A stretch of DNA of 64,000 nucleotides from Escherichia phage CJ20. The position numbers were made by a program, and so were the translations under genes. The notes beneath the pieces were generated by a model that worked only from the letters and a program-made list of their open reading frames with translations, was not told the origin of the DNA and searched no databases. The stretch lies in the sequence record MT533174.1; one strand, given 5' to 3'. Shown here piece after piece: positions 4,300 to 16,838 of this stretch (position 1 is its first letter; the number at the start of each line of letters is the position of its first letter).

Positions 4300-6606
<2,307 letters not shown>

Positions 6607-6610
<4 letters not shown>

Positions 6611-7482
6611 AATGATACCCTATTTTTTCTTGGCGCTGGAGGTGCTGGGTCAACCGGTACAGGAATATCCTGCGAGTATGTTTGAACGGATTCACCTTGC
6701 CAGTCTTCTTGGTCGACATCTCGCGGAACGGCTTCCGAGTCAACAGATTCGAAATTACCTTCCGGCGCAAGCTCTCTGGAATTTGCAAAGAAGTCAAGAT
6801 AGATAGTACGGATTTCTCCGGCCACTTCTTTAACCGGTGGATATAGCCAACCGTTGACTTCGAACATAATGGACCATTCAAGTCTACGACGGGTCATTGC
6901 ATCACCTTCAATTTGCTCATCCATAGCAATGGACTGAAGCACGATTCTTATATCACGTTCGAATGTAATTTCATTCGTGTAGAGTTCGGTGATAGTTGTA
7001 TTAAAATGTGGCTGGAAGTAAGGCATGATTTGTTCGATAATCTGGAACATATCATCTTGATGCCTTGTATATATTCCAAGCTCAAAAATCATTTTGACCG
7101 GCACCGGAGAATATTGAGATATCTGCTTGCGAGGGTCGTTATTAGCAAATCGCGCCTGTGTGTGATTCTGGAGAGCCGTTTTATATTGCCCGTTATACAT
7201 CAAGTCAACAAGATGTAAGTTCATACGGGGCAGTACGGTCTCGATTTTAGCCTTCTGAGCAGCACGTTCTTGTGGTGACATGTCAGGAGTCGGTGTATTC
7301 TGAATTGCGGTCCATTTTCCAAGCTGCATCATGAATTTTTCTTTTGATGCGTAGGAAATAGGGACCTTAATATATTTAAGTCCAGTGTCTTCTCTGGTTC
7401 TGGCCACTTGTACATGGGAAAATAAATCGCCCATTAAAACGATATAGCGACGCAGAGACGAATTATAAAAATGCCCAAACAA
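6607..7482 (-). CDS. 15: tail sheath stabiliser / tail terminator, T4 gp15-like
   Basis: 291-aa [24 protein letters not shown]... resembling the T4 gp15 N-terminus; the conserved first codon is TTG (plus strand CAA at 7480-7482) with GGAGG 8 nt upstream. Confidence 0.85.
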
Positions 7483-7525
7483 AGTAACCTCCGGGCGCCC
7501 AGTTCGGGCGCATTAATAAATGTAT

Positions 7526-8311
7526 TTATTCATCAAAGAAACTATCGTCAAAGCTATCCTGTTTTGCCTTAGGCGGTGACTCAAGCCCACGACCATTCTG
7601 CACAAAATATGGTTTAACATATTCAGCTGCTTCTGCGTTAATCTCATCAGATTCTGCATAAGGAATATCACTGATATCTGTAAGGCCATCGATATTGTGG
7701 ATTGGTTGCAAATCGAGCTCACTGAATTCTGGAATATTAATACCTTCATTTCGTTGCAATTCGGGTTTAAGCTCTTCTCCGGAGTAAATGTATTTGCTCG
7801 CGGTGATTTTACGGATGGCGTTTTGACCTACCTGATAGAACGGGTCATAAGGCTGTACCCAGGTTATTTCGAACAGACTGTTATCGAGAGGGAAATAAAT
7901 CAAATCCCCTGCAATAGGTTCGGTGCCGTTGCATTGATGTTTAAACAGATTAGGGTTAATCGACACTGTGATTTCATCATTCACAGTCATACCAAATTTA
8001 CTGAAGATGGAACCATCACCCTGATAAGCATCGAACGTATCCAGATAACCAGCAAATTTCCATGCTTTATCAAATTTACTCTGGAGGTCTTCACCGAATA
8101 ACAAATCTGGTTTAACGAATTGTCTTGGGATGTAATAGAGAGACATCCCGCGCATCTGAATACTTTCAGCAACAATAGCATCGGCTAAAGTCTGGGTATT
8201 TTCATGATGCATAAAGTTTACATAAGGGTTCAATATCTCTGTAGCATTGGTATTGTCATACCCGGTCCCGTCTTCGAGCCGAGCGAATAAGTTCGCGTCA
8301 TATGTAGCCAT
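7526..8311 (-). CDS. 14: neck protein, T4 gp14-like
   Basis: 261-aa [21 protein letters not shown]...; position and size match T4 gp14 (256 aa); start shares a base with the gene 13 stop (TAATG). Confidence 0.85.
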
Positions 8312-9249
8312 TAGCCCACCAATATAGGAGTCGGTGCATCCAGCAGGTCAAGTTCTTCGCGAAGACGTTCTTTTTCCATACGAGCTTCTTCAATTAAACG
8401 AACACCATCAACCGTGGTACCACCCGGCATCATCATTCCCTGGTGCTTTGCCAATACGTTGCCGTTAACTTCCTTAACAAGCGCCGTGGCATAGTCTTTC
8501 ACCCAACGGTTGTTGTATGCACCATCTTGAAGTCCAAGGTCCTCACCAGCTCTCATGCCGCTTATTCTGCGTGCAGGGTTATCCCACTGCGCACCAGTGT
8601 TCCACGGATTATCACAATCACCAGAAGCATAACCATAACCCGCCGTATTGCTGGCCATTGCATCAACACCATTAAAGGATTTGGTGTAAACTTCAATTAC
8701 AATCACATCTCCCTGGCGGAAGTTGCCCATAATTTTAAGTTGTTCAGTATCGTCATTATACCAGTAATCTGGAAGCGGAACCATCAGGTCTTGCATCATC
8801 GAACGATATTGCATAAGCTGTGTAAAATAACCAAGGTCTGCACCAAAGGCATTTGGGCCAAAGCTATTACAAGAACTCCCCATTCCACCGTTAATCCCGG
8901 CAAGCCCCAGAACGAAATCTGTGAACCATGGGTATGTTGCCTGACCATCCATCGAAGTTAATGAACCGACGTTGGTACGAATAATCTGTGTTACTGCAAA
9001 AATATTACGACCTTTTAAATCGAAAACACCATCACGGAATTTCTGTTGTGAAACTTCATCATGGCCAATATAAAAAGCCTGATAGCCTTTGTTGTAACCA
9101 TTATAATGATATTCACCATATAATTCTAATGCGCGCTGGATACAATCATAAACCTGTTCGGTCGTGACTTCGATATTCGTGATTGGGGCGCCAAGACGAC
9201 GAAGGATTGCATCTTTTAATTGTTTCGGGTTGTATGATTCAGTTGCCAT
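8311..9249 (-). CDS. 13: neck protein, T4 gp13-like
   Basis: 312-aa ORF between wac and gene 14; size and synteny as T4 gp13 (309 aa). Confidence 0.82.
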
Positions 9250-9267
9250 ATGTTTTCCTCTTTACTG

Positions 9268-9275
9268 TATTTATA
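9268..9275 (-). promoter_or_regulatory. T4-type late promoter (TATAAATA) upstream of gene 13
   Basis: Plus strand TATTTATA at 9268-9275, 19 nt upstream of the gene 13 ATG. Confidence 0.65.
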
Positions 9276-9277
9276 CG

Positions 9278-9296
9278 AAAAAAGGGCCGAAGCCCT
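9278..9296 (-). terminator. rho-independent terminator after wac (hairpin usable in both directions)
   Basis: GGGC-CGAA-GCCC hairpin at 9284-9295, followed on the minus strand by a U-run (plus-strand A-run 9278-9283); located between the wac stop and the gene 13 late promoter. Confidence 0.6.
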
Positions 9297-9301
9297 TTTG
9301 T

Positions 9302-10879
9302 TTATGGTCCAACAGTCACGAATGTCGACAAAAGAACCCATGCATTATCAACAAGCACGTAAGGGAGTCCGTCAGCCGCAGGAGCGACAGGAGGCCTTTT
9401 GGCGAGCTCTGTTTCTAAGGCTGATACTTTACCTTCAAGTTCAGTTATCTTCGTCTCGGCTCCACTGGTGCGCGATTCGATACCATCCACACGTGATACT
9501 AGAGCAGGAATATCACCACCTACGATTTCGGCCCAAGCACCGTCCTGGCGCCCGTAAATCTTCGTATCAGATGGAGCGTCACTAAGCTTAGTCGGCATTT
9601 CATTTACCAGGCCTTCAACAGTCGGGAGAATACCTTTTTCAGCAACAGTCGAACCGTTTGGGTTAGTCCCTTCGATTTGTGATTTAATCGTCAGGATAGA
9701 ACCTTTAAGACCAGATTGGTTGTTACCAATTTCTGCCTGAATATCCTGAATAGCCGCGGCATTTGCGCGACTAGAAGTTTCGACTTCACGCATACGCGGA
9801 ATCAAGGAAGTTGGTGCCGGACTATCACTAATACCCACTGCAACGTTAAGGGCTACAACTTGTCCCTGTAAACCACTGCTTGTATTTTCTCCGATAACAA
9901 CATGAACACCTGTCATGTCATCACGCAACGTTTTTAGACGACCATTAATGGAAGTCGGTTTGGCATCAGTACCAATATCTGTTTCAACTTTCGACAATCT
10001 TGTATTCATACCAGAAGTGGTATTTTCTAAATTTGTTGCCTTGGTTTCCAGAGTCCCGACACGGTTTGCGATACTTTGACCTTGGCCAAAACCAATTGCG
10101 GTTTTGATATTCCCTATATCAGTTTCATTAGTTCCGGCTTTAGCTTCGACTGCAGTTAAACGAGTATAAACAGGAGATTTACCAATACCTTCAGTGCGAG
10201 GACCAAGTTCTTCGCGCATCTCATTTAATTTAATCGCGAGGCCACCAACATCCGAATCATTATAATTATCTTCGAGAATAGTAAGACGACGTTGCGTGGT
10301 TGCAATTGCCGTACTATTATCGATGATAATACGTTTCATCCCGGTGGCATCATTGGTTTCGCCTTCAGGCAACGGGTCGCCATTGATATCTTGGTTTGCA
10401 TAATGACCCATTTCACGCTTAATACGGTTAATATTGGCACGAACGGTCAAATATGGTCCATCTTCCAGTGGGTTATAATAACCAACATCTTCCTGTAATT
10501 CACCGAGATTTGTGCTGGTATCAAGTAAAGCAATATCAGTTTCGGCTAAACCAGTCTGGAGGCTTACAATATTAATACGGTTAGTTTCAATCTGTTGAAT
10601 AACGCTTGCATCTGTAGAAATATCCAGAGCTTCTTTAATCTGGTTAACGCTATCGACAATTTCGTTTACTTTGTCTTTAGTGGTCGCGTCATTCTTTTCC
10701 AGAGTTTCAACGTTGGTCTGTACACCCAAAGCTGCAGCATTAAGGGCACCATCGTGCCCATATTTGGTAGTGGCTGCAGTTAAGCAATCACCATTGCGAA
10801 TCCATTCAATTCGTTTTTGGTTAGCTTCTGGCACACCATCGACAAACGGAAGATTCACTAATTCTAATTTGTTAATCAT
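9302..10879 (-). CDS. wac: fibritin (whisker antigen control), T4 wac-like
   Basis: 525-aa coiled-coil protein; N-terminus ...LPFVDGVPEANQKRIEWIRNG... and foldon-like C-terminus ...GLPYVLVDNAWVLLSTF resemble T4 fibritin; synteny 12-wac-13. Confidence 0.9.
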   Translation of the reverse strand: MINKLELVNLPFVDGVPEANQKRIEWIRNGDCLTAATTKYGHDGALNAAALGVQTNVETLEKNDATTKDKVNEIVDSVNQIKEALDISTDASVIQQIETNRINIVSLQTGLAETDIALLDTSTNLGELQEDVGYYNPLEDGPYLTVRANINRIKREMGHYANQDINGDPLPEGETNDATGMKRIIIDNSTAIATTQRRLTILEDNYNDSDVGGLAIKLNEMREELGPRTEGIGKSPVYTRLTAVEAKAGTNETDIGNIKTAIGFGQGQSIANRVGTLETKATNLENTTSGMNTRLSKVETDIGTDAKPTSINGRLKTLRDDMTGVHVVIGENTSSGLQGQVVALNVAVGISDSPAPTSLIPRMREVETSSRANAAAIQDIQAEIGNNQSGLKGSILTIKSQIEGTNPNGSTVAEKGILPTVEGLVNEMPTKLSDAPSDTKIYGRQDGAWAEIVGGDIPALVSRVDGIESRTSGAETKITELEGKVSALETELAKRPPVAPAADGLPYVLVDNAWVLLSTFVTVGP

Positions 10880-10888
10880 TTTTATTCC

Positions 10889-12424
10889 TTATCTGACCTT
10901 AATAATAAAAAGAATAGACATGGACCATGGGCGGCTTTCATTACCTATCAGACCTTCGCTGTTTAATGTAGTTCGAGAATCACGACTGCCATCGCCATCG
11001 ACTTCATAACCTTCGTTCGTAAAATAAGAACGGTTATCCCAGTCCAAACCTTTACGAGTGCCTGCATAGTTTGAACGAGCTGTGTTACCAAATGCACCAG
11101 CATTATCATGTTCACCAAAACCACCGGCGTGCTTGTGGAAACGGAGTTGTTGTGCCTGTACTGTACCGTGACCATATGAACCAACACCTTGACCCAATTT
11201 AGGTTTTTGTTTGGAATCATTTCCTTTGGCGTTTCTTATATTAATGTTTGTTTCCCATTCCTTCATAGCACCATCGTTAGAGCTGTTGGAACCACGAGGA
11301 AACAATCCACGAAAATCTGGCTTATTACCAGTTGCGCCCCATTTACCACCAACGACATTTCGGAAACCAGCATCACCGACATTACCGCCGTCACAAATTT
11401 CCCAACCAGAAGGAATATTACCAGTTTGACCGCCCCACATAATAATAGTTCCGATTGGCACACTATCTTTTAGTTCGTTACGGGTTACAACATCCTGACC
11501 ATTTCTGCGTAAAGTTCCATTAACGTTAAGAGTTCCATTAATTGTACCGCCCCCAGTCGAAATGACGTTTGCATTATATGCAAGAGCTGTATTACCATCA
11601 CCTGAGCCAACGGTAGTTGTTAATTTAACAACACCAAGGCGACCAGTTGTGCCAGTTCTGGATAAAAGAGTGGACGGAGATAATGCAATATTCGAGTTAC
11701 TTCCCGCAGCTGCCTCGGACGGAGTTGCCAGACGAATAAGACCATTTTGGCTTTGCGTAGAAACGAGTTGTTTCAAGCCAAGCGGAGAAACTGCAACGCC
11801 ATCATTCATTGTCCCCTGCTGAACTTCCGCCGGAGTTGCAATTTTAACAATCCCTTGAACAGTGGTTGTTGCGGTGCTATAAGTTGGAAGTGCAGCCGTG
11901 GCTTTACCGATTGCTAATGAAACCTTCAGAGGAGTCATAGCTGTTGTATCATCAGTTCCGGCTAGCGCAGCCGGTTGGGTTGAAATCTTAATTACACCAT
12001 TGCGGTCTTCAGTAGAAGTGCGAGTATTAAATGTATTATCAATGGATGCTTTAAGACTTGACGGGACAATAGCTGCATCGGTTACTGTACCATCAATAGC
12101 TTCTGCATTGGTTGCGTAACGGGTAATACCAACATATGTTTCGGTAGCTTGTGTCGGGATAGTCAGTCGAGCTTTAAGAGTTTCTGGAGTTACTGCTGTA
12201 TTATTACCGAGACCATCAATAACTTCTTGTTCAGTTGCCAGTCGAATAATACCTGGGACTGCAACAGTTGCTTCTGGGATAAATCCATCAATAGCAATAG
12301 GAGCCAAAGCCCCTAATGCATCTTGAACGTTTGTTACTGTCGGCGAGAATGAAGTTCCCGCCGGGTCAAATGTTTTATATTCGGATTTATCGCTAATATG
12401 TTTTAGCGTGTTAGTCGTTGTCAT
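10889..12424 (-). CDS. 12: short tail fibre protein, T4 gp12-like
   Basis: 511-aa ORF; C-terminal region ...HKHAGGFGEHDNAGAFGNTARSNYAGTRKGLDWDNRSYFTNEGYE... closely matches my recall of T4 gp12. Confidence 0.9.
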   Translation of the reverse strand: MTTTNTLKHISDKSEYKTFDPAGTSFSPTVTNVQDALGALAPIAIDGFIPEATVAVPGIIRLATEQEVIDGLGNNTAVTPETLKARLTIPTQATETYVGITRYATNAEAIDGTVTDAAIVPSSLKASIDNTFNTRTSTEDRNGVIKISTQPAALAGTDDTTAMTPLKVSLAIGKATAALPTYSTATTTVQGIVKIATPAEVQQGTMNDGVAVSPLGLKQLVSTQSQNGLIRLATPSEAAAGSNSNIALSPSTLLSRTGTTGRLGVVKLTTTVGSGDGNTALAYNANVISTGGGTINGTLNVNGTLRRNGQDVVTRNELKDSVPIGTIIMWGGQTGNIPSGWEICDGGNVGDAGFRNVVGGKWGATGNKPDFRGLFPRGSNSSNDGAMKEWETNINIRNAKGNDSKQKPKLGQGVGSYGHGTVQAQQLRFHKHAGGFGEHDNAGAFGNTARSNYAGTRKGLDWDNRSYFTNEGYEVDGDGSRDSRTTLNSEGLIGNESRPWSMSILFIIKVR

Positions 12425-13089
12425 TAGTAGACTCGCTTATAGTGATAAAGAGATGTTGGACCATTAACCGAACCACCTTGCAATACTACATCTTGTGCGC
12501 CAAGATATTCCCATTGGCCATAACCAGAGCGGGGTTGCTGAACAATAGTCTGTTCCATAACACATCCATATTGGGTCGTAGGAGCAAAGATGTGATTCTG
12601 ATAGTCGTTATATGTAATATTTAATATAGACTGGTCCAGTGCATCGATAGCAGTCGCAGAAATAATCATTCCCTGGGAAATTGCAGTCAAAAGAACGTCA
12701 TTGACTTTCGATGCAACCAGCACGCTCGAGTCGCCGACAATAACTTCTACCGGGAAACCGAATACTTTAATAAGAACCGTTTCGCCAAGGTTTTCGCCAG
12801 AAATAGACCCAGTGAACTTAATTTTATCAGACTGACTAATAAATCCAGGGGCGGTATTCTCATGACGAGTAATTATCGAACCAACAGGAAGTTCTGCACG
12901 AAATGCAATATCATCAATTGCACTTTGGACTGTTGGATAGAATACACCATCATTTGTCTGGTTAGCAGACGGGCCACCGATATAGCGGTTACCCGCTACA
13001 GCAGTGGAATCAGTAGTTGTATAATCAAACTGGAGGTAACCAGCATGGCGGGATATTACACCCGCCTTTTTATTTGTCAACGTAGTCAT
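12424..13089 (-). CDS. 11: baseplate wedge / short tail fibre attachment protein, T4 gp11-like
   Basis: 221 codons from the ATG at 13087-13089 (MTTLTNKKAGVISRHAGYL..., cf. T4 gp11 MSLLNNKAGVISR); start overlaps the gene 10 stop as TAATG; the ORF-track TTG extension to 13107 is rejected. Confidence 0.85.
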   Translation of the reverse strand: MTTLTNKKAGVISRHAGYLQFDYTTTDSTAVAGNRYIGGPSANQTNDGVFYPTVQSAIDDIAFRAELPVGSIITRHENTAPGFISQSDKIKFTGSISGENLGETVLIKVFGFPVEVIVGDSSVLVASKVNDVLLTAISQGMIISATAIDALDQSILNITYNDYQNHIFAPTTQYGCVMEQTIVQQPRSGYGQWEYLGAQDVVLQGGSVNGPTSLYHYKRVY

Positions 13090-14900
13090 TATGCAATCCT
13101 TACCCAACGGTAAACAATCAAATATGGAGGAAGCGTATCTATTGGCTGTGCCAGCGGGTCAAGAGCTTCGTTAATAGTCGCATAATCTTCACGATAGTTT
13201 GTATAAGCAGGACCTTGCGCATCTGGGTCAACCTGGCAACCACCAACAATAATTGGACCAGTTGCATCAGCTACCAATACTTTTTCATCGGTCTGAATTT
13301 TAGGAATATTGTTTGATTTAATATGAATCTGTACATTACCACCAGTTCCGCCCGCAGTTGCCTGAGGAGCACCAGAAGAATCAAGGTCGTTATTGTTCGT
13401 ATGGAAGTTCGAGGCTGGGTCAGCAGACCAACCAATCAAAACACGTTCTTCAAGGCGCTTCCATGTTCCCATACCCATATATGTTGCAGGGTTATTCGGG
13501 TTAGTCGTGTTCTCGTAAATTGTGCCAATTGGATGGAACATATTAAAGAGAATCGAAACAGCAGATGGTTTAATTTCGCTTGGGTCAACCGGTTCCAGGT
13601 TAGGAGCAAACGGATTATCGTAATCCGTAATTCTTATATCGCCGGTGATTGAAACTTCTGGACCCTGGGAAACATAGATGTTATTTGTTTCATCTGTAAT
13701 TTCATCAAGAGTCATTGTGGTGCCGATATCGTTATTATACCAAACGATAGACAGAATATCGCCATCTTCAAATGTGCGAGCAAACTCAAAAGATTCAATA
13801 CGGTTGTCTTCATCAAAGGTTGTTATATAGTCTTCTTTTGATTTAGCCCATTGACCACCATTATCTGTACACTCTTCTGCAGTGTCACCATCAGCACCTT
13901 CGCATGTATAAGCTGGATAGTTTGCAGTTCCTGCTTCGTGTTGTAATATGCTGTTGATATAAACTTCACATGCGTTCGGGTTAATTGGACTGCTAGGAGA
14001 TACCGCTAGTTCAGTAACCATAAATGTGTGTTTAGTAGATAAATCAGCTACAACCAAAGAGCCTTCGACAGGGGTTTCAAGAGTAAATTTCGAATCACGG
14101 ATTTGAACATCTCGACGGTTATAAGAACTACGATACTGAGCAATACCATCGTTGAATGTTCTGACAATAACTGTGTCACCAGCTGCACAAGGCATACGTA
14201 AACGAATATTGCGACCGTCAAGGGTTACAATTTCACCAGGCGCAGCACCAGGCGAACCGAATTCAGCATTAACCGGGTCGAAAATATCATCTTTGCCATA
14301 AAACAGGTCGTTACCACGATGTTTAACTTCGAGGCTTGCAATGTTATAAGGACGACCATTAAACACATCCAGGAAGTCCGTTTGACCTTCTGTTGCGATG
14401 AATTGCTGGGTCTCAACAGTTGCCACGTCGTTATTTGAAATCTTGTCAATCTGTTTGTTGTCAATGTATTCCCAACGACCTGGAGAGCAATAAACCAGTT
14501 CGATATCTGCCAGGTTACGACGGATAACAACAGGGTCAGGAGAGCCTTTCATTGTGTCACCGACAGCCGGAACAATCGTCACCGGGGAGACTTGCCATGT
14601 TGCAAACACATCACGCAAACGAATAACGTAATTATATTCGGCTGGTGTCCCTTTAGGTAGTTTAACAGTAATCATACCATTTGAAGTATTCACTGCATAG
14701 CTACGACCCATAACGGCTTCCAGAGTTGTACCGTCGGCTACTGACCATGTTTTCCATGCACCAGCAGCATGAGGATTTTCTCCATCGCCGAGCTGGTAGT
14801 AAAGGTCATCAAAGTTATTATTAATTTTTTGGCCGCCGAGACGAAGATAATCGCCGGTACCATCATCGACCATCACGCCTATTTTTAAATTTTGTTTCAT
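13089..14900 (-). CDS. 10: baseplate wedge protein, T4 gp10-like
   Basis: 603-aa ORF; size (T4 gp10 is 602 aa) and synteny 9-10-11; start overlaps the gene 9 stop (TAATG). Confidence 0.82.
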   Translation of the reverse strand: MKQNLKIGVMVDDGTGDYLRLGGQKINNNFDDLYYQLGDGENPHAAGAWKTWSVADGTTLEAVMGRSYAVNTSNGMITVKLPKGTPAEYNYVIRLRDVFATWQVSPVTIVPAVGDTMKGSPDPVVIRRNLADIELVYCSPGRWEYIDNKQIDKISNNDVATVETQQFIATEGQTDFLDVFNGRPYNIASLEVKHRGNDLFYGKDDIFDPVNAEFGSPGAAPGEIVTLDGRNIRLRMPCAAGDTVIVRTFNDGIAQYRSSYNRRDVQIRDSKFTLETPVEGSLVVADLSTKHTFMVTELAVSPSSPINPNACEVYINSILQHEAGTANYPAYTCEGADGDTAEECTDNGGQWAKSKEDYITTFDEDNRIESFEFARTFEDGDILSIVWYNNDIGTTMTLDEITDETNNIYVSQGPEVSITGDIRITDYDNPFAPNLEPVDPSEIKPSAVSILFNMFHPIGTIYENTTNPNNPATYMGMGTWKRLEERVLIGWSADPASNFHTNNNDLDSSGAPQATAGGTGGNVQIHIKSNNIPKIQTDEKVLVADATGPIIVGGCQVDPDAQGPAYTNYREDYATINEALDPLAQPIDTLPPYLIVYRWVRIA

Positions 14901-15769
14901 TAGATTGCTACCCCAATGGTTTGTGTCTCGGCTACCTTAATGGCGAGCTTCATGGAGACTGGTGCGCTTACGGTCGCCGTAACGAAGTTGTCAGCGCCTA
15001 TTTTAAAGTTAATGGTATATAACTCATCATCGTCATCCACGTGACCACGACGCAATACACCGTATTCTGTGCTATACACTTGGTTAGCTTGAGTGTCTAC
15101 AAAGAGCATGACCTCTGATGCTTTGTATTTAGTTTCATCAGTAGATATAGCGGTTAACAAAAGTTTCATTGTTTTGAAATCACTGCGCAATGCAATCGGA
15201 ATATCTCTTGCGTTCAGGCCAATATTATAAGTTCGGTCCAAAGGAATGTGTTTTACACCAAACATATTTTCGATTGAATAATCCCAGGTACCGACGCCGT
15301 TTGCATCATCGATACACCAAAGAGTAATCTTTGTATAAGGGCTGGTGAAGCGAATTTTGTTAGTCGGTGCCGAAACGAAAGTATCTGTGCCTTGTAGTTC
15401 GATTTCCAGAGATTGAGTCGGTGATAAAGTCCCGTTAGAGTTAATGAAGATAATACCTTCACCCATTTTACCGCGGGCAATCCTGGCAGTAACAACACCC
15501 TTGGAGGTATCAACGTCACGGAGAGAACCGAGCGCAACAGGAGTGTTCCATTCGATTATGTTTGTTGCTTTTTGATAATAACCAGTAGCATGCAAGACTT
15601 GGGATTTCTGACCGTTATCGATTGAATAAAGACGTTGGTCACCGAAGGTATTATAGACGTTATCAAAATCTTCGTTAATTTTACGACCACCATCATATAA
15701 GATATCGCCGGTGCTGGCGTTACCAATTTCGCCGACATCTATTAGAAGTTTTGGGGTTTGATTAATCAT
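14900..15769 (-). CDS. 9: baseplate wedge / long tail fibre socket protein, T4 gp9-like
   Basis: 289-aa ORF; size (T4 gp9 is 288 aa) and synteny; preceded by a late promoter. Confidence 0.82.
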   Translation of the reverse strand: MINQTPKLLIDVGEIGNASTGDILYDGGRKINEDFDNVYNTFGDQRLYSIDNGQKSQVLHATGYYQKATNIIEWNTPVALGSLRDVDTSKGVVTARIARGKMGEGIIFINSNGTLSPTQSLEIELQGTDTFVSAPTNKIRFTSPYTKITLWCIDDANGVGTWDYSIENMFGVKHIPLDRTYNIGLNARDIPIALRSDFKTMKLLLTAISTDETKYKASEVMLFVDTQANQVYSTEYGVLRRGHVDDDDELYTINFKIGADNFVTATVSAPVSMKLAIKVAETQTIGVAI

Positions 15770-15796: not shown

Positions 15797-15804
15797 TATT
15801 TATA
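15797..15804 (-). promoter_or_regulatory. T4-type late promoter (TATAAATA) upstream of gene 9
   Basis: Plus strand TATTTATA at 15797-15804, 28 nt upstream of the gene 9 ATG. Confidence 0.65.
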
Positions 15805-15830
15805 AAATAAAAAAGGGACCCGAAGGTCCC
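15805..15830 (-). terminator. rho-independent terminator after gene 8
   Basis: GGGACC-CGAA-GGTCCC hairpin at 15815-15830, followed on the minus strand by a U-run (plus-strand A-run 15805-15814). Confidence 0.6.
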
Positions 15831-15833
15831 TAG

Positions 15834-16838
15834 TTAGAATTCAAAAATAATATTTACTTCTTCGGTTTGGTCCATTGCACGATAAACAGGTGGCCTGTTT
15901 TCCATGTAAATCATTTCACCAGAATGTCGACTCAAATCAATAGCATCATAATATTCCTTTGTTGCTTTGATGTTTGGGTCATTAGGAGCAGCTTTAATTT
16001 CCAGAGGGTTAGCGACAATTGAAATCTGTCTAAAACCTTTGTTACCTGGAAGACTGAACTGAGGAAAATAAATCGAATCCATGAAAGCCTTGAAACGAAT
16101 TGTATTACCCTTGATACGATAGATTAAACCATAATCATTTTGCTGCCATGTCAGGTTATCTTTGTACCCCCAACGTTCTGGGTCTTCTGCAATTTCTTCT
16201 GGCCATGGAACAACGATATATTCGTTTGTGCAGCGGTTAATGGATACGTCAGGTGGAATCTCATAGAGATATTCCCAGAGATAGCCATCACCCATATCAA
16301 CACGTCCTTCAGTATCGCCAGTCCCTGATGGAGCCCGGCTGGAAGCATAGTCTGAAGTCCATTTACCACCAAGCTTAAGACATTCTTGCTTATTAGTGAT
16401 GGAATAAATCGAACAAGTACCAGATTCAGGAACATCCACACAACGATAAACCATCCAACCTTTACCAACATCAGTTCGGTTATATGGTGCGGTATTACTT
16501 ACGACAATTTCGCCAATCTGGAAGTTCAGCGGGTTAGGATAACGAACATCACCCCAATCCTTACGAGGAACCACGCAGTCAAGCATGGATTTATACACCT
16601 TGACTGCTCCCATCATATTAGTCCAAACATCTTCAACACCTTGAGCATCATCAACCGGATAAGGTGGAGCAAACCCCGGGTCGTTCTCGTTTGCAGCCCA
16701 TGGTTCTGCACGACCGAACGTGACATACATTGTATTTTCAGTGGCGCTATCCCCGATAGCGCCGTAAAAGTTATACATTTTTTCCGTTCTGAATTTTGAT
16801 GTAACAATCGAACGGTAAACTACGGTAGAGTTATTCAT
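15834..16838 (-). CDS. 8: baseplate wedge protein, T4 gp8-like
   Basis: 334-aa ORF, exactly the T4 gp8 length; synteny 7-8-9; overlaps the gene 7 stop by 8 nt. Confidence 0.82.
   Translation of the reverse strand: MNNSTVVYRSIVTSKFRTEKMYNFYGAIGDSATENTMYVTFGRAEPWAANENDPGFAPPYPVDDAQGVEDVWTNMMGAVKVYKSMLDCVVPRKDWGDVRYPNPLNFQIGEIVVSNTAPYNRTDVGKGWMVYRCVDVPESGTCSIYSITNKQECLKLGGKWTSDYASSRAPSGTGDTEGRVDMGDGYLWEYLYEIPPDVSINRCTNEYIVVPWPEEIAEDPERWGYKDNLTWQQNDYGLIYRIKGNTIRFKAFMDSIYFPQFSLPGNKGFRQISIVANPLEIKAAPNDPNIKATKEYYDAIDLSRHSGEMIYMENRPPVYRAMDQTEEVNIIFEF

Follow-up and report, generated by a model that had tools for sequence, protein, structure and literature searches.

Gene 15 of the phage analysed here is very likely read from a UUG codon (nt 7482–7480, minus strand) by way of a GGAGG Shine-Dalgarno (SD) sequence, with the UUG most likely holding gp15 below its neighbours, in a cluster that carries the stop/start overlaps usual for the family. 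The window is a 64,000 nt stretch of DNA from Escherichia phage CJ20 (MT533174.1), a member of Gaprivervirus and a VR7/VR25/SP18-like, T4-type coliphage. Genes 7 to 17 are all on its minus strand and form an ordinary T4-type late structural gene cluster, in which gene 15 sits between the neck gene 14 and the small-terminase gene 16. The TTG start and the overlaps of the cluster are correct but ordinary, being already annotated or known from T4.

The start site of gene 15

The features that bear on the start of gene 15 are as follows.

6607–7482, minus strand: gene 15 CDS, tail terminator / tail sheath stabilizer gp15 (876 nt, 291 aa, TTG start, TGA stop)
7480–7482, minus strand: TTG start codon of gene 15, aligned with the ATG that T4 and most relatives have there
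7488–7492, minus strand: SD sequence GGAGG, with a 5-nt spacer to the TTG
7513–7515, minus strand: in-frame TAA, the upstream limit of the gene 15 frame, read directly from the sequence
7432–7434, minus strand: in-frame ATG of codon 17 (Met17), the alternative start chosen for SP18 and RZ

A first-pass annotation had placed the start at the TTG, where the conserved N-terminus MFGHFYNSS... begins, and this is supported by the SD sequence, the closed frame and the alignment to T4 gp15 from residue 1. It had put GGAGG 8 nt upstream, which is roughly right for the centre of the motif, but the spacer counted from the last G is 5 nt. The 10 codons between the TAA (7515–7513) and the TTG include no ATG, GTG or TTG, and relatives show the same 10 in-frame codons.

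The predicted protein matches Pfam family PF16724 over residues 4–271 (E = 1.8e-100; 335.6 bits, cut-off 25). Residues 1–285 align to residues 1–271 of the solved T4 gp15 (PDB 4HUD, 3J2M), a protein of the same fold family, with E = 3.5e-103 and with residue 1 on residue 1. T4 gp15 forms a hexameric ring capping the virion tail, which is known for T4 only, and gp15 is present in six copies per tail (PMC3004832). Its R11 forms a salt bridge with E227 of gp14 (PMC12929629), and the equivalent of R11 falls within the 16-residue stretch preceding Met17.

Comparison of the start codon in related phages, proposed as a check in the first pass, gave the same answer. Of 32 Gaprivervirus records, 31 carry exactly this stretch from the SD sequence to the TTG and the 32nd has one mismatch in it, and such conservation argues that the arrangement is not due to chance; the TTG itself is present in all 32. 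The gene 14–16 region is 98.6–98.8% identical to those of vB_EcoM_VR7 and VR25 (HM563683, KP007361), and in VR7 an 876-nt, TTG-initiated gene 15 CDS is already annotated at the corresponding position. VR7 and most relatives differ from the window in having a T just before the SD sequence, where the window has a C (7493). A search of the open literature found no paper giving VR7 virion proteomics or mentioning a non-ATG start of gene 15.

Public annotations disagree within the genus, since gene 15 begins at the TTG in VR7, and at Met17 in SP18 and vB_EcoM_RZ. In the latter reading, gp15 begins at the downstream in-frame ATG (7434–7432) and the preceding 16 codons are an untranslated leader. In its favour, ATG is the commonest start codon, and automatic annotators likewise picked downstream ATGs for gp15 in phages where the gene starts with ATT (see below). 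Against it, no SD sequence was found upstream of the Met17 ATG. Distantly related lineages retain the amino acids encoded by codons 2–16 but differ at synonymous sites, and among T4-like phages the third codon positions vary in the 16-residue stretch before Met17 although its residues are conserved. For codons 2–13 this conservation is partly by construction, because some of the gp15 sequences were retrieved with a DNA pattern covering codons 1–13, which fixes codons 2–13. T4 gp15 starts at the position equivalent to the TTG, and it is within this N-terminal stretch that its R11 binds gp14. Lastly, 10 of 56 gp15 homologues have Leu in place of Met at residue 17, so the Met17 ATG is not a conserved start. 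Initiation at Met17 is thus very improbable, and on comparative grounds the TTG appears well supported and is favoured over it, a result that would settle the disagreement among the public Gaprivervirus records in favour of TTG.

Overlaps, promoters and hairpins in the late cluster

At seven junctions the stop codon of one gene overlaps the start of the next on the same strand.

16831–16838, minus strand: gene 7 end / gene 8 start, 8-nt overlap, same in T4
14898–14902, minus strand: TAATG, gene 9 stop / gene 10 start, 1-nt overlap, same in T4
13087–13091, minus strand: TAATG, gene 10 stop / gene 11 start, 1-nt overlap, same in T4
12422–12426, minus strand: TAATG, gene 11 stop / gene 12 start, 1-nt overlap
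8309–8313, minus strand: TAATG, gene 13 stop / gene 14 start, 1-nt overlap
6607–6610, minus strand: ATGA, gene 15 stop / gene 16 start, 4-nt overlap
6119–6135, minus strand: gene 16 end / gene 17 start, 17-nt overlap, same in T4

The TAATG overlaps claimed earlier at 9/10, 10/11 and 13/14 were all located, and the longer overlaps at 7/8 and 16/17 proved to be 8 and 17 nt. Two others, the TAATG at 11/12 and the ATGA at 15/16, had been missed. True gaps are found at 8/9 (64 nt), wac/13 (52 nt), 14/15 (43 nt) and 12/wac (9 nt). The start of gene 11 is the ATG at 13089, the equivalent of which opens the gene in T4 and VR7; for this reason an upstream TTG at 13107, present in the ORF list, was rejected.

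Gene order is the same as in the T4 gene 7–17 late cluster, as are the overlaps at 7/8 (8 nt), 9/10 and 10/11 (both TAATG) and 16/17 (17 nt). The remaining junctions differ in detail: T4 has ATGA at 11/12 where the window has TAATG, ATGA at 12/wac where the window has a 9-nt gap, a 1-nt gap at 13/14 where the window has TAATG, and an 8-nt gap at 15/16 where the window has ATGA. The geometry of these overlaps suggests translational coupling through the neck and baseplate genes. In what is the usual T4-family arrangement, ribosomes ending one gene at a TAATG, ATGA or longer overlap would start on the next.

Three of the gaps contain hairpins, two of them followed by the late-promoter motif.

15797–15831, minus strand: terminator-like hairpin (15814–15831) with a T-run, then late-promoter motif TATAAATA (15797–15804), in the 8/9 gap
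9268–9299, minus strand: hairpin (9280–9299) with a T-run, then TATAAATA (9268–9275), in the wac/13 gap
7495–7511, minus strand: GC-rich hairpin GCGCCC-GAACT-GGGCGC, without a T-run, in the 14/15 gap, 2 nt before the SD sequence

A hairpin and TATAAATA module also lies ahead of gene 9 in T4. On the minus strand of the region, TATAAATA is confined to positions ahead of genes 9 and 13, within gene 17 and at the end of gene 17, and the copy at 9268–9275 is the last ahead of genes 13-14-15-16-17. No exact TATAAATA motif for gene 15 itself was found on this strand of the region. A candidate late promoter at the gene 14 stop, AATAAATA, matches at only 7 of 8 positions and was rejected. Gene 15 would be carried on the transcript from the TATAAATA ahead of gene 13. 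With no late-promoter motif specific to gene 15, the proportions of gp13, gp14, gp15, gp16 and gp17 would be determined post-transcriptionally.

The hairpin in the 14/15 gap has a predicted energy of −11.6 kcal/mol when folded alone, and many relatives have hairpins of differing sequence at the same place. T4 gene 15 differs in having an ATG start after AGGAG, and there is no GC hairpin in its 14/15 gap. RNA folding of the gap gave two competing pictures, one with the hairpin upstream of the SD sequence and the other with a weaker stem that pairs the SD sequence with codons 2–3. The latter was not built on, as it is weaker in VR7 and absent from other TTG lineages. The gap also holds a single small ORF (ATG at 7513), which was rejected as a coupling partner for gene 15: it has no SD sequence, lies in another frame and ends past the TTG.

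gp15 start codons across T4-like phages

About 2,100 Straboviridae records carry a gp15 homologue. The comparison set contained 56 distinct gp15 genes, which begin with ATG (34), TTG (15), ATT (6) or GTG (1), so that 22 have a non-ATG start. In nearly all of the latter, GGAGG or AGGAG is found 5–7 nt upstream. Weak starts are spread over lineages infecting Escherichia, Salmonella, Enterobacter, Serratia, Cronobacter, Proteus and Acinetobacter, and a neighbour-joining tree requires at least 10 changes of start-codon state. Close pairs can differ (PS2 has ATG and Muldoon TTG; Pm5461 has ATG and phiP4-3 ATT), and there are whole clades that keep non-ATG starts, e.g., the Acinetobacter phages.

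As a control, the neighbouring genes of the same loci were searched for an ATG at the aligned start or no more than 8 codons from it, such an ATG being assumed to be the start. One was found for gene 13 in 15/15, for gene 14 in 50/50, for gene 16 in 53/53 and for gene 17 in 47/48 cases; the sole exception has its ATG one codon beyond the 8-codon limit.

It is possible, although somewhat doubtful, that throughout the T4-like phages (Straboviridae) gene 15 is a hot spot at which start codons are kept deliberately weak. If so, an excess of tail terminator would do harm, for instance through the capping of necks or incomplete tails, and translation initiation would be the control point, because gene 15 has no promoter of its own. 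Recurrence of weak starts, if it reflects selection, would suggest that T4-type assembly tolerates only a limited dose of tail terminator; it could also reflect relaxed constraint, with no selection for low expression. In several of the phages with ATT starts, gp15 is mis-annotated: the annotated protein is too short in phiP4-3, ZZ1 and RB43-GVA and too long in W16. AUU-initiated genes are very rare in bacteria, and if selection is at work these gp15 genes would also supply a set of natural examples.

Effect of the weak start on gp15 output

The GGAGG sequence 5 nt upstream would direct initiation at the UUG (7482–7480), giving the full-length protein MFGHFYNSS.... In E. coli reporters, UUG supports 10–100% of the expression obtained with AUG, and AUU 1–2%; a near-cognate start combined with a good SD sequence is a known way of setting low or regulated initiation (bioRxiv 10.1101/063800). 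The same combination is seen in E. coli genes under weak-start control, i.e., infC and pcnB (AUU), and in UUG and GUG genes generally. The parallel with infC is incomplete, as infC is subject to feedback by IF3 while the case for gp15 is purely comparative. To our knowledge, no feedback loop is known or has been suggested for gp15.

The first-pass annotation held that the TTG would lower gp15 output relative to its neighbours, which is plausible. Since gene 15 lacks a late promoter of its own, a weak start codon could plausibly serve to reduce gp15 levels, although the actual reduction might be slight, as the strong GGAGG sequence may compensate. The weak UUG is the most likely device for keeping gp15 synthesis under that of the neighbouring genes; a virion requires just six copies of gp15.

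If the start codon has a regulatory role, it must be set against the possibility that the TTG is the true start but a neutral variant, where little gp15 is needed, the SD sequence is strong and the codon drifts. This would account for the repeated switching among ATG, TTG, ATT and GTG on the tree and between close pairs, and T4 gene 15 itself uses ATG. However, four neighbouring genes in the same genomes show no such drift. These include gene 14, the product of which is also a six-copy hexamer, and since it always has ATG, a low copy number is not by itself a sufficient explanation. In addition, TTG is fixed in all 32 Gaprivervirus members, and non-ATG codons persist through clades such as that of the Acinetobacter phages. 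Neutral drift is considered unlikely, but carries more weight than a model in which gene 15 is translated mainly by termination-reinitiation from an upstream ORF, tolerating a non-AUG codon so that the start codon itself matters little. In RB16, ZZ1 and RB43 an upstream ORF does end 1–3 nt before the non-ATG codon (in ZZ1 it is a homing-endonuclease gene), and coupling is common in the cluster, judging by the overlaps elsewhere. In the window, however, the gene 14 stop is 43 nt upstream of gene 15 with a stable hairpin between them, and the strong SD sequence argues for direct 30S binding, making reinitiation an improbable explanation here. With the UUG as a weak but directly recognised start, the AUGA overlap at the other end of the gene may extend its influence, as poor initiation on gene 15 may also limit gp16.

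The start site of gene 15

The 1.1-kb piece around the gene 15 start is 95–99% identical to 32 phage records, all of them Gaprivervirus, i.e., T4-type myoviruses (Straboviridae, Tevenvirinae); examples are vB_EcoM_VR25 (98.8%), VR7 (98.6%) and Shigella phage SP18 (95.5%). Large ORFs on the minus strand follow the T4 order (7, 8, 9, 10, 11, 12, wac, 13, 14, 15, 16, 17), and Pfam matches were found for gp8, gp9, gp10, gp11, gp12, fibritin, gp14, gp15 and gp16. Fibritin (wac; 9302–10879, −) has 525 aa versus 528 aa (CDS of 1587 nt) in VR7, a small difference in a region otherwise about 98% identical.

The start of gene 15 reads ...GATGAATAA ATACATTTATTAATGCGCCCGAACTGGGCGCCCGGAGGTTACT TTG TTT GGG CAT TTT TAT AAT TCG TCT..., with the following features:

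7515–7513, −: in-frame TAA upstream of the TTG
7492–7488, −: GGAGG Shine-Dalgarno (SD) sequence, 5 nt spacer to the TTG
7482–7480, −: TTG start codon
7434–7432, −: next in-frame ATG (codon 17, Met17)

No in-frame ATG, GTG or TTG occurs between the TAA and the TTG, and the Met17 ATG is not preceded by an SD. The first-pass annotation, which started gene 15 at this TTG with GGAGG 8 nt upstream, is correct; 8 nt fits the centre of the SD.

Public records disagree. VR7 has an 876-nt gene 15 CDS beginning at TTG, and the SP18 and vB_EcoM_RZ records begin at Met17, so the TTG start is already on record, inconsistently. An alignment of the window gp15 with the solved T4 protein (4HUD, 3J2M; E=3.5e-103) pairs their first residues, and T4 gene 15 has ATG exactly where the window has TTG, reading on as MFGYFYNSS. 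A set of 74 related loci was drawn from viral contigs: every enterobacterial-type relative in it retains the N-terminus MFGH[FW]YNSS.RRY, and in the more distant marine ones a Met still stands directly ahead of a F/L-x-x-x-(F)-Y-H motif. Across 56 distinct gp15 sequences the amino acids of codons 2–16 are kept while third positions vary (in some of these, the search pattern had already constrained codons 2–13 in part), and beyond the SD on the upstream side conservation falls away sharply. Ten of the 56 carry Leu at residue 17, and the Met17 ATG is therefore no conserved alternative start. Within the T4 virion, a salt bridge links gp15 R11 to gp14 E227 (PMC12929629); as R11 precedes Met17, a protein starting at Met17 would lack this contact. 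The stretch from the SD through the TTG to codons 2–10 does not vary among 31 of the 32 Gaprivervirus records; the remaining one, TH57, has a single mismatch. Comparison with relatives favours TTG and gives clear grounds for choosing between the competing annotations, an addition of modest value. The first-pass observation and its interpretation are both sound; what they describe in the window is known and already annotated, within an ordinary late cluster of the T4 type.

Gene 15 start codons across T4-like relatives

Scans of viral contigs found the conserved N-terminal coding pattern preceded by ATG (34), TTG/GTG (13) or ATT (5). Pooled with other loci and made non-redundant, the set comprised 56 distinct gp15 genes (ATG 34, TTG 15, ATT 6, GTG 1), with at least 10 changes of start codon state on a neighbour-joining tree.

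Lineages with non-ATG starts, and related gene 15 loci (L-numbers) with ATT
TTG: Gaprivervirus, Kanagawavirus (CIP9), Salmonella S16/STML-198, Serratia Muldoon, RB16/Lw1, Acinetobacter Kimel
GTG: Cronobacter LPCS28-like phage
ATT: RB43, Acinetobacter AbTZA1, ZZ1, Proteus phiP4-3, one further contig of 169,947 bp
ATT loci: L030/L077 (phiP4-3), L034/L078 (ZZ1), L080 (W16), L094 (AbTZA1), L097, L098/L133 (RB43)

Nearly all non-ATG starts have GGAGG or AGGAG 5–7 nt upstream, and ATT is usually preceded by AAGGAG and then 7 nt. Bacteria very seldom use AUU as a start codon. RB43 and phiP4-3 have an in-frame stop 1–4 codons upstream, leaving ATT as the sole candidate start. The TTG starts of relatives are mostly annotated correctly and the ATT starts mis-annotated: the records for phiP4-3, ZZ1 and RB43-GVA shorten gene 15, and that for W16 lengthens it.

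In control genes taken from the same loci, ATG was present at, or no more than 8 codons from, the aligned start in 15/15 (gene 13), 50/50 (gene 14), 53/53 (gene 16) and 47/48 cases (gene 17, where the lone exception has its ATG one codon outside the limit). Gene 15 alone among these genes thus varies in its start codon, and the recurrent use of weak start codons there, across the family, is a second, modest addition. Low demand alone does not explain the pattern, because gp14 is also a 6-copy protein. The literature searched, with incomplete coverage, held no mention of recurrent weak gene 15 starts, and the pattern is not claimed as unreported.

Junctions, transcription and the 14/15 gap

Every junction of genes 7–17 was read. 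TAATG overlaps occur at 9/10, 10/11, 11/12 and 13/14, an ATGA overlap at 15/16, and longer overlaps at 7/8 (8 nt) and 16/17 (17 nt); gaps separate 8/9 (64 nt), 12/wac (9 nt), wac/13 (52 nt) and 14/15 (43 nt). The overlaps listed originally (TAATG at 13/14, 10/11 and 9/10; longer ones at 7/8 and 16/17) all stand, but 11/12 and 15/16 had been missed. T4 shares those at 7/8, 9/10, 10/11 and 16/17 and has ATGA at 11/12 and 12/wac; such overlaps are a trait inherited within the family. Their geometry suggests translational coupling. Since gene 16 combines a poor SD with the ATGA overlap, the amount of gp16 made may depend on gene 15 output. The ORF list starts gene 11 at TTG 13107 (13087–13107, −); T4/VR7 homology instead puts the start at ATG 13089, the codon that makes up the TAATG shared with gene 10.

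Two of the gaps, 8/9 and wac/13, have the same layout: a GC hairpin and its T-run come first, then the late-promoter motif TATAAATA. A motif scan of the minus strand in this region found exact copies at four sites only:

15797–15804, −: exact TATAAATA
9268–9275, −: exact TATAAATA
4799–4806, −: exact TATAAATA, inside gene 17
4300–4307, −: exact TATAAATA

The T4 annotation gives gene 17 internal transcription and shorter products in frame, and the copy at 4799–4806 may be the equivalent of its internal late promoter. None of the four copies serves gene 15 separately; with no late-promoter motif to itself, this gene most likely lies on the transcript beginning before gene 13, in which case the relative yields of gp13, gp14, gp15, gp16 and gp17 must be set at translation. 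The virion contains 12 copies of gp13 and 6 each of gp14 and gp15. In E. coli reporters UUG gives 10–100% of AUG output (bioRxiv 10.1101/063800), and the proposal that TTG lowers gp15 output is plausible, though the strong SD may offset this.

The 14/15 gap contains a GC-rich hairpin:

7495–7511, −: GCGCCC-GAACT-GGGCGC, ending 2 nt before the SD

Lacking a T-run, it is no classical terminator. Many relatives (loci L005–L035) have hairpins of unrelated sequence at this position, often with UUCG, GCAA or GAAA loops, whereas T4 has none. Several lineages carry an insertion in this gap, either a homing-endonuclease (Mob-like) ORF or an unknown one, ending 1–3 nt before the gene 15 start (L078, 1–600; L080, 1–369; L133, 1–480; also Miller, YI837 and MY742), and the gap looks like a preferred site for insertions. 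An alternative fold, a weaker stem that is not conserved, pairs the SD with codons 2–3. The base directly before the SD (7493, −) is C in the window (GCGCCCGGAGG) and T in VR7, VR20, VR25 and VR26; the T version of the SD–TTG query matches 31 of 32 records exactly, with a mismatch only in TH57. In the folding model, C at 7493 strengthens the SD–codon 2–3 stem (−9.5 vs −6.6 kcal/mol).
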